A stretch of DNA of 64,000 bases, taken from positions 153,692 to 217,691 of the forward strand of contig CAZELK010000001.1 of the NCBI GenBank assembly GCA_964513145.1. The letters are read 5' to 3'. This document shows, in pieces, positions 10,439 to 62,209 of the stretch. A model generated the notes under the pieces. That model was not told where the DNA came from. It did no database searches and saw only the letters and a list, made by a program, of their open reading frames with translations. Position 1 is the first letter of the stretch. Each line of letters begins with the position of its first letter. The stretch is from Candidatus Woesearchaeota archaeon. Lineage in GTDB: Archaea > Nanobdellota > Nanobdellia > SCGC-AAA011-G17 > JACPIM01. A program made the translations under genes and the position numbers.

Positions 10439-10495
10439 GTTTTATAAATTGGATTTTATAGGTTAAGTTAATGCACTAGTGGTCTAATGGCTATG

Positions 10496-10523
10496 CGTCA
10501 AAAATTTAATTTTTGTCTAGCAA
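10496..10523 (+). other. 28-nt BHB intron at non-canonical tRNA position 23/24
   Basis: Central helix GCTA/TAGC, bulges TG^C and AA^A, internal hairpin CAAAAAT/ATTTTTG. Confidence 0.85.
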
Positions 10524-10537
10524 ACGTCGGCCTTCCA

Positions 10538-10571
10538 TGATATTGGGAAAAAAGTAACCAAAATAGAGGAG
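10538..10571 (+). other. 34-nt intron at canonical tRNA position 37/38
   Basis: Central helix CTTC/GAGG, 3' bulge AG^A; intron-side helix is relaxed. Confidence 0.85.
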
Positions 10572-10908
10572 AGCCGGCTATCGGGGTTCAAATCCCCGCT
10601 GGTGCATATACCTATTTTGAATGATTTAAGGTGATGAGCTAATATTTAGCAAGAGTCTCTCAAAATAATTCAACTTGATGTTGTATTCTGCCGGCGCATA
10701 CATTTATTTTAATATAATTTACAATAATATGAGTCCTAATATGACTTGGATTTCTCATAAAGATCAAATTTTCAAAAAAGAAGTTACAGATGTTATGCTT
10801 GAAAATATTTAATTTTATATAGAGAAAGAGCAAGGACAATACAAAACAAGATGAAAATAGCACAATGAAAATAGAACATTAAAAGCTTTAAATACTATTG
10901 TAACATTT

Positions 10909-57725: not shown

Positions 57726-60505
57726 TTAAACTTGCTCTTGATCTAACTTAAGTCCTTTTCTTTCCCTGATCTGTTTTATAATTTTTTGTTGTAATTCTGT
57801 TGGTAATTTCTCAAATATCTGGTCTACTAAAGACTGCTGTCCTCTTCCTGCAGTTGCCCCCCTTAATTCAGAAGCAATTCCAAACATTTCAGCTACAGGC
57901 ATTTTAGCCTTCATTACAGTATGGTCAAGCTCTTGTTCTATTTCTAATAATTGCCCCCTTTTATTCTGTACTAGTTTAGTTACTTCTCCCAGATATTGTG
58001 ATGGAGCTTCTAATTGTAAAATTTGTAAAGGTTCAAAAATAACTGGATTAGCCTGCATTATTGCCCCTTTAACAGATTCTCTAACAGCAGGCAATACTTG
58101 TGCAGGTCCCCTGTGAATTGCATCCTCATGTAATTTTGTATCCATTAAATAAACCTTCAATTTTGTGCATGGTTCTCTTGCCAATGGTCCTTCTTTCATA
58201 ACTTGTTCAAAACCATCCATTACTAATTCAATAACCTCTCCAATATGTACAACCCCCCTTGTCTGGTCAATCAATAAATTTCCTTTGAACACTTCTTTTA
58301 TTTTCCTTGCTTCTTTTGCATCATACCCATATTTTACAAAAATATCAACAATTTCTTGTTCTTTTTTCTTCATTCTTGATTCTTCAATTTCTCCCTCTTT
58401 TATTGCCTGATAAACATTATCCTCTAAAGGTTCAACAACTATGTAAAATTTATTATGTTTATTTGGAGATTTGCCTTCCATTTCAGGAGATTTCTTTAAG
58501 ACAGTTTCTCTAAATACAACTATTGGTGGTGATGTAATGACATCCAGACCTTTTTCTGTTCTTATTCTGTTTTCAATAACTTCTAAATGTAACTCACCCA
58601 TTCCAGAAATTAAGTTTTCTCCAGTTTCTTCATTAATCTCTATTGTTACTCCGGGATCTTCCTTATTTACTTGTTTTAATACTTCAATTAATCTTGGTAA
58701 GTCAGATGCTTTCTTTGCTTCAATAGATTTTGTGATTACTGGTTCAAAAATATGTTTTATAGCCTCAAAAGGCTGCATTGGGTTTGAAGAAACAGTTTCA
58801 CCTGCAAATACGTCCTTTAATCCAACTAAGCCAAGAACATTTCCAGCTATGCCTTCATCAATTTGTACCCTTTTGGCTCCATTGTAAACACTAATTTGCT
58901 GTAATCTTACTGTTCTTTTTGCACCATTTAAATAAACTTCTTGTCCGCCCCTTATTGTTCCTGAAAATAATCTTCCAGCAGCTATTTCTCCAGCATGCTT
59001 GTCAATAACAATTTTAGTGACTACAAAAACAGTAGGCCCATTTGGATCGCAATTAATCAAGGATTTTCCTTCAGTACTTTCAAAATCTCCGTGCCATAAT
59101 TTTGGAACCCTGTATTTCTGGGCTTCTTTTGGATTTGGATGATGTTTTATTGACATGTTTAAAATAATTCTGTGCAAAGGTGCAATCTTTGCAAGCTCTT
59201 CATGTTTTTCATTTAAGTAAGCGTCTATTACATTTTTAAAAGAAATATTGTTTGTCTGCATATAAGAAAAACTTAATGCCCATTTATGAATTGCTGAACC
59301 AAATGCAACAGATCCATCCTGGACATTAACTTGCCACTTTTCTTTAAATTCTTCTGGTGCTAGTCTGTAAATTAACTTATTTACATCACCTATAATTTTC
59401 AAGAATTTTTCCTGCATTTTTTCAGGAGTTAATTTTACTTCTCTTATTAATCTGTCAACTTTATTTATAAAAAGACATGGCTTGACTCTTTCTCTTAAAG
59501 CCTGTTTAATTACTGTTTCTGTTTGTGGCATTATCCCTTCAACAGAATCTACCAAAACTACTGTGCCATCAATAGCCCTCATAGCCCTGGTTACATCACC
59601 GCCAAAATCAACATGTCCTGGAGTGTCAATTAAATTAATTAAATATAATTTTCCATCTGTGCCTTTATGTACCATTGAAACATTTGCAGCATCAATTGTT
59701 ATCCCTCTTTCTTTTTCATCTTCATGAAAATCCAAAACGCAGGCTTTGCCTGCTAGTTCTTCAGAAATCATGCCTGCACCCAATAACAAATTATCTGAAA
59801 ATGTTGTATTTGAAATGAACATTCCTTCTGCTACAAAGTTATGGTTGTCCTTTACTGTAAAATCATAAACTACATCAGAAATATCTTTTTCAATAGAAAT
59901 TATTTCTATAAAATCTAGATCTGTATAATTAGTTTTAATTAAGGAAATTGTTCCATCAGAGTTTATTATTTCTTGAACTTCATCTTTACACACTTTAATT
60001 TTCTTTGGACAAATTACTTTATCATTTATTTTTAGTTTATATGCTTCTTTTTTTGTTATATTATTATTCTCAAAAATCAAATATTTATGTTCTGGTGTTG
60101 TTGAAATTGAATTATCATTCTTTAACTTTATTTTTATTAAATTTCCGCCTTTTAATTTCCAAGCTAATTCCACTGGCTTAATTTCTATTTTTCCTGTTTC
60201 TTTATTTAGGGAAGGAACTTTTAAATTTAAATTTCTTACATCATAAATTATTTGTTCTTCTTTCTCTTCAAACTTTATTCCTTTAGATTCAGCTAATTTA
60301 AATAATTCTTCCGCCTTAACTGCAGATCCATTATTTAAAGACAACCTTGAATTTGGATGTACGCACTTGCCATGCTCTTGTATAGTAACTTATAAATAAT
60401 AAATTACTAAAAATCAATATGCGCAGACGTACAGATATTTCTTATTTGCTCAGGTTTAGTCATTAAATCTTTGATAACTTTGACGAGTTCATCTTCTGAT
60501 GCCAT
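57726..60505 (-). CDS. fusA: Elongation factor 2; exons 60413-60505 and 57726-60374; 913-aa precursor, 727 aa after intein removal
   Basis: Exon 1 MASEDELVKVIKDLMTKPEQIRNICTSAHID (missed by the track); exon 2 HGK[intein]TTFSDNLL, ERGITI, DTPGH, NKVD, diphthamide loop EDAIHRG. Confidence 0.95.
59808..60365 (-). other. 186-aa mini-intein in the EF-2 P-loop
   Basis: CVHPNSRL start, TTPEHKY block B, VYDFTVKDNHNF..ISN|T end; no endonuclease motifs. Confidence 0.92.
60375..60412 (-). other. 38-nt putative BHB intron in fusA mRNA
   Basis: TTTTAGTAATTTATTATTTATAAGTTACTATACAAGAG between Asp GAT and His CAT; BHB geometry places both cuts exactly at the borders. Confidence 0.8.
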
Positions 60506-60550: not shown

Positions 60551-62209
60551 TTAAGCTTTTCTTTTTATCTTTAATTGCTTAGAATTCGCTTTTTTTACAT
60601 GTTTATGGTAAATAAAGTATAAAATAAAAACCAAAGCCACAAATGCATAAATTCCCATTGTTTTAATTTGCGTTACTTCTTTAACAGCCTGTGTTGTGAT
60701 TCCTTCCAATATTTCATCTTTATCTTTTTTTGTTTCTTCAGTTGATTTTGTATCAAATAATTTTATTACTTTTTGTTCTTGATTTTGCGGTACTATTTCA
60801 CTTGCTTTAACTTCTCTGTTCACCACTTGTGATGGTGCATTGTCAGAACCGCCCCTGCCAGAACTAGAACTTCCGCCTCCGCCGCCGGAAGAAGGACTGG
60901 TCACATCATTGGAATTTCCAAATATGCCATAAACACTGAAATGAGTTAAATTATAAAGTACATAATTTTCTTGAGTATCAACTACTGCATTCAATTCTTC
61001 CCAGGAATTTAAAGTTTCATTATAATAATAAAGCTTGATTGTAGATTCATTTATATTTGTTAATTCAGAATTACTATAATTAATCCTTAAGGTTGCTGAA
61101 TCAAAAGAAATGTTTTGTGACAATATCTCAACAGCCTTTACTTTCTCTTTATTTGAATAATTCAGATTAGAACTGACTAAATTAATGTTTGCATCAGATA
61201 AATTTGTGTTTGAAAATACATCTAAAGAGATCACACTATCTAAAAAAACTCTCCTTGTAAACGTCTGTGTCGAATTTGAAGAATTTATCTGGGTCTGGTT
61301 GCTCTGTGTTGCATTTGTCAGATTTTGTTCTTGTATTAGTTCAGTGTATAGTAAATATAAACTATTTAATACTGGTGTCTGAATTGTGTCTGAATTTAAA
61401 ACTGCCTTTATTTTTATTGTAGAAATATTTAAAGAAGAAATATTTTTATCAGATAAATTTATCCATGAAGAGCCTGAATTTAAAGAGTAAAAATAATCTA
61501 TTCTTTGATCATTTAAAGTGTGTGTATAATTTATATAATCAAATCTGCTTATATTTGTTGGGTTGATATTTTGTGTTTCTATTGAACTTGAACTTGGATA
61601 AGAAATTGTTGTAGTTGTGTTTGTAGTTGTTGTAAAATAAGTTGCATAAACATAATCAACTTTAATTTTTTCTTGTGTTGGAAAGATGCCAAAAGTATTT
61701 CTAGATGAATTTAAATTGGATAAAGTAAAATTAATCAATTTTGGGTTTCCGTCATAATTTGCAGTTGCATATGGGTCTGAACATAATGTTAAGGGATTGC
61801 AAATTTTTATAGATGTTGCCTTATTGTGTTTTACATAAACAGAAATAATGTCATAATTTTGTAAATTATTGCCAAAAGTTAAATCTAAAATCTCATCTTG
61901 TTCATCTTCTTCTATAGAAACATCACCATTTCCCAAAGAACTCACTTTAGATAGTTTATCATCTCCATCTTGGGTTGCTGCTGTTAATTGTAAGCTCGTC
62001 TGTGTTGTTGTGGCTGTCGTTTGTGTAGTTATAATCGGAATTAATTTGACTTCATTATCTGATAAATTAATTGCAGAAGAATTATATATATAATTTGAAG
62101 GGGTATGAATTACAAACCCTGTTGTTGATGGCTTTACAAATAATATAAAACCCAAGAATAGAACTATAGCTAATACTACTACAATAATCTCCTCTTTTTT
62201 TACATCCAT
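60551..62209 (-). CDS. Surface (S-layer-like) glycoprotein with N- and C-terminal TM segments
   Basis: Many N-x-S/T sequons, Thr-rich and Gly/Ser linkers, LTHFSVYGIF. Confidence 0.65.
   Translation of the reverse strand: MDVKKEEIIVVVLAIVLFLGFILFVKPSTTGFVIHTPSNYIYNSSAINLSDNEVKLIPIITTQTTATTTQTSLQLTAATQDGDDKLSKVSSLGNGDVSIEEDEQDEILDLTFGNNLQNYDIISVYVKHNKATSIKICNPLTLCSDPYATANYDGNPKLINFTLSNLNSSRNTFGIFPTQEKIKVDYVYATYFTTTTNTTTTISYPSSSSIETQNINPTNISRFDYINYTHTLNDQRIDYFYSLNSGSSWINLSDKNISSLNISTIKIKAVLNSDTIQTPVLNSLYLLYTELIQEQNLTNATQSNQTQINSSNSTQTFTRRVFLDSVISLDVFSNTNLSDANINLVSSNLNYSNKEKVKAVEILSQNISFDSATLRINYSNSELTNINESTIKLYYYNETLNSWEELNAVVDTQENYVLYNLTHFSVYGIFGNSNDVTSPSSGGGGGSSSSGRGGSDNAPSQVVNREVKASEIVPQNQEQKVIKLFDTKSTEETKKDKDEILEGITTQAVKEVTQIKTMGIYAFVALVFILYFIYHKHVKKANSKQLKIKRKA

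Follow-up and report, generated by a model that had tools for sequence, protein, structure and literature searches.

The gene for translation elongation factor 2 (EF-2) of a Candidatus Woesearchaeota archaeon lies on the minus strand of the DNA analysed here, a stretch of 64,000 nt from contig CAZELK010000001.1 that is referred to in full as the window. The P-loop coding region of this gene is interrupted by a 38 nt insert at positions 60412-60375. The insert is very probably an intron of the bulge-helix-bulge (BHB) type, carried by the pre-mRNA of a gene that is single-copy in this genome, and would be excised by the enzymes of tRNA splicing. This reading is based on the anatomy of the insert, the exact restoration of the P-loop motif upon its removal, the conservation and covariation of the fold in relatives, and the presence of genes for both enzymes, the splicing endonuclease EndA and the ligase RtcB. 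An initial annotation, made from the window alone, had proposed that tRNA machinery splices the EF-2 message. The frame-breaking insert, the resumption of the protein at HGK, the BHB pairing and the cut positions that it gave are confirmed to the base. The predicted splicing is now supported also by about 35 relatives with compensatory changes, by the single-copy status of the gene and by independent assemblies.

Anatomy of the interrupted EF-2 gene

EF-2 exon 1 (60505-60413, minus strand, as are all features of the gene) consists of 31 codons, MASEDELVKVIKDLMTKPEQIRNICTSAHID. It begins with the ATG at 60505-60503, and a Shine-Dalgarno-like GGAGG, read from the sequence, is found 11 nt 5′ of this start codon (60521-60517). 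Exon 1 closes with the first half of the P-loop (...AHID), its last codon being GAT at 60415-60413, and EF-2 of two genomes of the same genus (G002 and G003) has an uninterrupted N-terminus colinear with it. In the frame of exon 1 the insert reads F-TAG-TAA; its length is not a multiple of three. Exon 2 (60374-57726) opens with CAT GGC AAG (HGK) at 60374 and continues for 882 codons up to the stop codon at 57726-57728. A Pfam search of exon 2 detects GTP_EFTU, EFG_III, EFG_IV and EFG_C, together with an intein splicing domain directly after HGK. Excision of 60412-60375 joins GAU to CAU and yields AHIDHGK, in a product colinear with the intron-less genes of the same genus. The spliced junction predicted from the cutting rule is GCGCATATTGAT|CATGGCAAG, also written GCGCATATTGAT|CATGGCAAGTGC.

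The domain that follows HGK belongs to a mini-intein of 186 aa (60365-59808), located 9 nt 3′ of the intron. It reads CVHPNS...FISN, with the extein TTFSDN next, and matches Pfam PF14890 (Intein_splicing) at E = 3e-23. It has an N-terminal Cys, a C-terminal Asn and a T at +1; Ser occupies the penultimate position, where His is usual. When both the insert and the intein are removed, the mature EF-2 is 727 aa in length, as the initial annotation had calculated. Production of EF-2 would appear to require RNA splicing, followed by protein splicing.

The canonical motif, hBHBh′, has two 3 nt bulges with a 4 bp helix between them and flanking helices (Marck and Grosjean 2003, in the account quoted in PMC5829648), and archaeal EndA cuts between bulge bases 2 and 3 (PMC2738675). 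In the EF-2 transcript the central helix H is formed by AUUG of the exon (60418-60415) and CAAG of the intron (60380-60377), which align as three Watson-Crick pairs (G-C, U-A, U-A) and an A.G at the outer position. The 5′ bulge AU^U (60414-60412) and the 3′ bulge AG^C (60376-60374) are directly flanked by helices, and are situated on opposite strands, each 3′ of its central-helix strand. With the EndA rule applied to this sequence, cuts are predicted between 60413 and 60412 and between 60375 and 60374. The intron itself folds into a hairpin h′ (60411-60381; arms 60411-60399 and 60393-60381) with 12 pairs in 13 stacked positions, one U.U, and the loop TATTT. The 11 bp stem given earlier was correct and slightly understated; a U.U and a U-A extend it so that it abuts both bulges. 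The outer exon-exon helix h is CAU/AUG (60421-60419 with 60373-60371; 3 bp). RNAfold extends it, after small loops, by the 3 bp UGC/GCA (60425-60423 with 60370-60368) and by the 7 bp UGUACGU/GCGUACA (60433-60427 with 60364-60358), and the 3′ strand of the latter lies within the first codons of the intein.

The 81 nt region around the insert has a folding z of -3.25. When the intron was shuffled, 0.35% of the shuffles matched the observed BHB quality at frame-restoring positions. A separate proposal, that the intron is a copy of a hairpin element dispersed in this genome, was rejected: a short-word blastn search of the genome with the 38-mer returned, apart from the query locus, only AT-rich matches of at most 16 nt that are attributable to chance.

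It should be considered whether the gene is dead or dying, i.e., a pseudogene that the insert has disrupted, with EF-2 provided by, for example, a host or an unassembled copy. DPANN archaea are host-dependent and have reduced genomes, and 1.2% of the marker genes are missing here. However the 882-codon frame is free of stops, the 31 codons of exon 1 are conserved and the full set of EF-2 domains is detected. The genome, a metagenome-assembled draft of 977 kb in 18 contigs with 28.6% GC, is 98.8% complete; a second intact fusA was looked for in it, and the sole further match to EF-2 is a distant GTPase (E = 5e-6). Like inserts are present in many species and in at least ten families of the order, and the precise restoration of the frame and the covariation described below point to selection on structure. 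A pseudogene is therefore regarded as extremely unlikely.

The intron family in relatives and its covariation

EF-2 genes were compared in three sets of sequences: an unselected set of 30 loci from 40 related genomes, a set of 20 further genomes of the order picked for a shortened EF-2 open frame, and the best 80 named records of Candidatus Woesearchaeota or Nanoarchaeota metagenome-assembled genomes. The relatives agree with the DPANN lineage that had been assigned to the window. Introns were called by a fixed rule, which required at least three paired positions of the four in the central helix, 3 nt bulges with the cut placed after base 2, and an adjoining intron helix. Of the EF-2 genes in the unselected set, 17 are uninterrupted, nine have one BHB intron and one has two (one case was settled by hand). 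Among the named records 61 genes are uninterrupted and about 11 have clear introns. Altogether comparable EF-2 introns are found in about 35 relatives, and inserts of this kind span at least ten families of the order.

The cutting rule gives the AHIDHGK motif and a good BHB in 25 of 26 introns from relatives. Intron lengths range from 30 to 39 nt and fall into all three classes modulo 3, and the inserts contain stop codons or shift the frame. Thus simple read-through is excluded by the mixture of length classes and by the stop codons. About five insertion positions are found within 15 nt of the P-loop: H^I, within the Ile codon (AU^N), D^H, and within the Lys codon at A^AR and at AA^R. At every one of these positions a cut after bulge base 2 regenerates AHIDHGK in the resolved cases. 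Two introns can occupy the same P-loop, as in G013 (loci L011 and L079; JBBSXW010000039.1), where two 31 nt BHB introns are present, one in the Ile codon and one in the Lys codon, 11 nt apart in the mature mRNA.

Intron presence varies between close relatives. Within the genus, the EF-2 genes of G002 and G003 are uninterrupted, AHIDHGKTTFSDN, and both the intron and the intein are absent, while G001 has a 39 nt insert at the same place together with the intein. A genome of another genus of the same family, G008, has a 36 nt insert and the intein. Among the sampled relatives the intron and the intein occur together at four loci, the intron without the intein at six and a P-loop intein without the intron at two, numbers that are too few to test a link between them.

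These relatives also bear on the question of whether an assembly or sequencing artefact added 38 nt to a continuous gene. The assembly is a metagenome-derived, AT-rich draft in 18 contigs, in which such an error might be looked for. However homologous inserts are present at the same site in G001 and G008, and a 22 nt probe representing the 3′ end of the intron and the start of exon 2 matched two independent JGI metagenome contigs. Both contigs are identical to the G001 form, i.e., the 39 nt intron of the sister species is found unchanged. The insert of the window is not repeated elsewhere in its genome, and an artefact would not be expected to yield a BHB with frame-restoring cut sites. Since independent assemblies contain the intron of the sister species, an assembly error is excluded, and an artefact of any kind is judged extremely improbable.

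Some loci of the comparison stand apart. In G044 (loci L038 and L078; JAGVZH010000004.1) a 31 nt A-rich insert follows HGK, with runs of A on its flanks and ambiguous borders. It folds simply into a long hairpin, AAAAAAAUAGU/ACUAUUUUCUU, in which two bulges cannot be clearly recognised, and the canonical cutting rule fails to restore the frame at any equivalent border. In G028 (L012, positions 1400-1480) the 5′ end of EF-2 reads ...KIRNIAI and is followed in another frame by IDHGKTTF; about 10 nt, corresponding to the C/A-A-H codons, are gone and there is no insert. This gap could be an assembly collapse at a repeated ATATTG, or something else. Three scanner calls (L059, L111 and L113) are dubious and are not resolved by the canonical rule.

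Covariation was assessed on an alignment of 17 distinct introns of the Asp^His (D^H) site, on which the BHB was scored. Standard pairs make up 84.9% of the cells, compared with 68.5% in the shuffled controls, none of which (0 of 500) is as high, and with 27-39% when the partners are slid. The covariation score is 0.472 vs 0.156, and 48 cells are altered on both sides where 16 are expected. In the central helix the three inner positions are paired in all 17 introns and the outermost has a standard pair in 7 of 17. The pair between the wobble base of the Ile codon and its intron partner has no exceptions, being C-G in ten introns and U-A in seven. Of the seven hairpin pairs that were scored, six show changes on both sides. 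Comparable changes are seen at other insertion sites, where U-A to C-G swaps are present; at the Lys site AUGG/CCAU alternates with ACGG/UCGU. The fit extends to a synonymous position outside the central helix: the Ala codon has C at its third position in 13 of 17 genes with an intron vs 10 of 69 without one, in keeping with the outer helix. The comparison of EF-2 5′ ends envisaged in the initial annotation thus shows an intron whose presence varies and a BHB that covaries.

A different explanation is that no RNA is spliced and that the ribosome takes off at GAU and lands immediately ahead of CAU, the 38 nt being bypassed as in phage T4 gene 60 and the "byp" elements of yeast mitochondria. The insert does resemble gene 60 in its stable hairpin and in the stop codon that lies two codons past the take-off site. 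Bypassing requires matching take-off and landing codons. However the triplet before CAU is GAG in the window, and the 17 D^H introns have GAG, GTG, TTA, GTA, TAT, CAG, GTT, TTT, TAG, CCG or TTG there, never GAT or GAC. Bypassing also leaves unexplained the four-position helix with its two 3 nt bulges, the covariation of the wobble base in the exon with the intron, the insertion sites located within codons (Ile AU^N, Lys A^AR), and the recurrence of an identical architecture in cbf5, at the place where crenarchaea have their intron (see below). Ribosomal bypassing was rejected on these grounds, i.e., the absence of a landing codon that matches GAU, the within-codon cuts, and a BHB and covariation that it does not predict; it is considered very unlikely.

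Splicing enzymes and other interrupted genes of the genome

One EndA gene is present. It encodes a protein of 188 aa with an N-terminal and a catalytic domain (PF02778, PF01974). Among solved structures the best matches are the homotetramer of M. jannaschii, to which residues 42-188 align without gaps, and the catalytic subunit of N. equitans, compared with which a 6-residue loop is lacking. Because of the gapless alignment to the M. jannaschii enzyme and the missing N. equitans loop, the protein is taken as alpha4-like, which is what it looks like at the sequence level. RtcB is also encoded (PF01139, 473 bits).

The rtcB gene itself (contig 6 of the genome, approximately 75.4-75.6 kb, plus strand) is interrupted three times, by two BHB-type inserts and an intein. 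The first insert, of 33 nt (L034:1574-1606), separates MPDGHWG from YGFPIGG and has the central helix GGGG/CCCU and the bulges UU^U and AU^A. The second (L034:1676-1686) is an 11 nt bulge-helix-loop in ISPGG|(I/V)GFDINC, with the outer helix CCCG/CGGG, the central helix GAGG/CCUU and a 7 nt loop. A large intein begins at approximately L034:1696, after DIN. The ligase for BHB splicing would itself need splicing in order to be made.

Two further protein genes have BHB inserts. In cbf5 a 19 nt insert (L138:1480-1498, equivalent to contig 3, 20387-20405, plus strand) follows the first base of the catalytic Asp codon, with the central helix CCUU/GAGG and the bulges AG^C and AU^A. Its removal gives GHSGTLDPGVTG, and its position is that of the crenarchaeal cbf5 intron, found here in a DPANN genome. 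In the RNase HII gene a 29 nt insert (L139:2072-2100, contig 10, minus strand) is located in the Arg codon of MFTLGIDEAGR|GPIIGPL, with the central helix CGGU/ACCG and the bulges AG^A and AA^A. The initial annotation had advised a scan for other BHB-interrupted genes, and the inserts in cbf5, RNase HII and RtcB were checked by eye and confirmed. A genome-wide search, which combined a BHB scanner with the joining of two long open frames, gave hundreds of hits, mainly intergenic hairpins, and missed known cases with short exons; it was abandoned. With at least five protein-coding introns in one genome, RNA splicing of messages is the economical reading.

The genome is also rich in tRNA BHB introns. 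Within the window a tRNA-Gly(UCC) of 134 nt (10473-10606, plus strand) has two inserts, one in the D-arm region (31 nt) and one in the anticodon loop (36 nt). It was found by an Rfam scan with a more permissive filter (37.1 bits, above the gathering score of 29 bits), and was reported neither by ARAGORN nor by a first Rfam scan at the gathering threshold. The initial annotation had taken the interrupted tRNA-Gly as a sign of a permissive endonuclease. The tRNA with its inserts exists, but permissiveness is not visible in the 188 aa EndA, a plain protein of alpha4-like type whose alignment to the strict enzyme of M. jannaschii is free of gaps. The 11 nt bulge-helix-loop in RtcB does hint at some tolerance of EndA.

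A mechanism for EF-2 may be proposed as follows. In the transcript CAU-AUUG of the exon would pair with CAAG at the 3′ end of the intron and AUG of exon 2, and the intron would fold into its hairpin, to produce a BHB with two 3 nt bulges four helix positions apart. The single alpha4-like EndA would cut after the second base of both bulges, and RtcB would join GAU to CAU, the 38-mer being probably circularised. The spliced mRNA would encode the unbroken AHIDHGK P-loop, and the intein after HGK would then leave by protein splicing to give the 727 aa EF-2. Cleavage and ligation presumably take place in vivo, and splicing is likely to compete with translation of unspliced RNA, which would stop after 32 codons (MASE...AHIDF).

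Several points weigh against the intron reading. The exact BHB has an energy of -18.4 kcal/mol and lies 3.6 kcal/mol above the minimum-energy fold of -22.0 kcal/mol; the two folds differ in the central helix alone, the hairpin and outer helices being common to both. The BHB is slightly relaxed, with A.G as the outermost central pair and only three pairs beside the 3′ bulge before a G.G. A.G at the outer central position is the commonest state in the family (the position is non-standard in 10 of the 17 D^H introns), and by sequence comparison the EF-2 copy is a slightly relaxed BHB typical of its intron family. The relatives are not independent, so that the shuffle statistics overstate significance; the slid-partner control preserves relatedness, and there the separation is still clear. 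EndA is without the extra loops that have been linked to broad specificity, the alpha4 type being described as strict (PMC5829648). Finally, the spliced 24 nt junction GCGCATATTGATCATGGCAAGTGC has no matches in JGI metagenome contigs, a result that is uninformative as the collection is mostly DNA.

A further alternative accepts cutting by EndA but sees in it mainly a signal for regulation or decay. Ligation would be limited to a small or condition-dependent part of the message, and the intron would act as a throttle on EF-2 and not as a neutral passenger. In its favor, the RtcB gene itself holds two inserts and an intein, so that splicing capacity could feed back on core genes, and removal of a BHB intron from a Haloferax 5′ UTR (untranslated region) affects expression (PMC7714728). 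However the patchy distribution, with G002 and G003 of the same genus lacking the intron, and the variable insertion sites are more like a selfish or neutral element, and a throttle is judged highly improbable. The related suggestion in the initial annotation, that EF-2 supply is coupled to EndA or ligase activity, is speculation.

Relation to known systems and significance

The EF-2 intron belongs to a known class, the BHB intron in mRNA. What is unusual is the essential host gene, the combination of intron and intein in one P-loop, and a splicing ligase that itself needs splicing. The BHB intron in the pre-mRNA of crenarchaeal cbf5, a pseudouridine synthase gene, was described with splicing confirmed by cDNA and was linked to a hetero-oligomeric endonuclease; the same paper mentions that introns had been "predicted" in other protein genes (Yokobori 2009, PMC2738675). 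A later paper names cbf5 as the only archaeal coding-sequence example besides its own 5′ UTR case (PMC7714728). The statement of the initial annotation that cbf5 is essentially the only documented case in protein genes fits both papers. The EF-2 intron resembles that of crenarchaeal cbf5 in being a short, stop-containing or frame-breaking insert at a catalytic motif, often with a relaxed BHB, to which the same cut rule applies. It differs in its EF-2 host gene, in its presence in DPANN (Woesearchaeota), in having about five insertion points within 15 nt and sometimes two introns per gene, in an EndA that looks alpha4-like, and in the intein 9 nt away; splicing was demonstrated by cDNA for cbf5 and is predicted for EF-2. 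The cbf5 intron is reportedly also to be credited to Watanabe 2002 and Yoshinari 2006. In the papers searched, cbf5 and a 5′ UTR intron of Haloferax are the sole mRNA substrates named. No paper on a BHB intron in EF-2 was found, and with most subscription journals outside the scope of the search this is not proof of absence.

The motif, the size range and the presumed enzymes (EndA, RtcB) are those of archaeal tRNA and rRNA BHB introns. In contrast to these, the EF-2 substrate is a translated mRNA with no tRNA body to aid recognition, and the exon halves of its motif are constrained by codons, with compensation by way of synonymous sites. Another mRNA substrate of an archaeal splicing endonuclease is the 46 nt BHB intron in the 5′ UTR of Haloferax volcanii HVO_1309, for which cleavage in vitro and a circular RNA product were observed (Schwarz et al. 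2020, PMC7714728). Cleavage, demonstrated for HVO_1309, is predicted for EF-2; the HVO_1309 intron, in a euryarchaeon, is in an untranslated leader and interrupts no reading frame. A more distant parallel is provided by the eukaryotic mRNAs HAC1 and XBP1, which according to work quoted in PMC5829648 and PMC8718801 are spliced by RtcB. Here too a short frame-changing mRNA intron is excised without a spliceosome and the ends are joined by a tRNA ligase, as would be the case for EF-2. However the nuclease for HAC1 and XBP1 is Ire1, which acts at two stem loops, not EndA at a BHB, and the process is stress-regulated.

The EF-2 intron is similar to inteins and homing introns in its location in the most conserved codons of an essential gene, its patchy presence in close relatives and its position beside a P-loop intein. 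The BHB intron encodes nothing, and is not known to have a homing mechanism. No homing-endonuclease gene adjoins EF-2; the neighbours are a DEAD-box helicase gene and, directly upstream, an ORF of 552 aa (60551-62209, minus strand) that matched no Pfam family.

A broader interpretation may be offered tentatively, as one that is possible and at present less likely than its alternatives taken together. In Woesearchaeales tRNA-type splicing might be routine for core protein genes, here EF-2, cbf5, RNase HII and RtcB, and might be carried out by a plain alpha4 endonuclease. BHB mini-introns might be selfish and mobile and settle in invariant codons like inteins; it is their distribution that suggests mobility. 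As RtcB would need its own activity in order to be made, splicing capacity would be self-reinforcing and could gate the supply of translation factors.

Since 2002 a single gene of a single phylum, cbf5, has been the basis for the view that tRNA machinery splices archaeal coding sequence. The EF-2 case adds an essential translation factor from a different superphylum, and an intron family of many members with several sites and clear covariation. If this is confirmed, in some archaea spliceosome-free mRNA splicing would count among the ordinary steps of gene expression, and the substrate range of alpha4-type endonucleases would be wider than assumed. The expectation that gene callers would miss such an intron is supported as part of the core reading; they would systematically truncate or split such DPANN genes, which would distort inferences on completeness and metabolism. 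The P-loop of EF-2 would also provide a natural system for intron colonisation of conserved sites beside an intein, and, with a ligase gene that is itself spliced, for feedback between splicing and translation.

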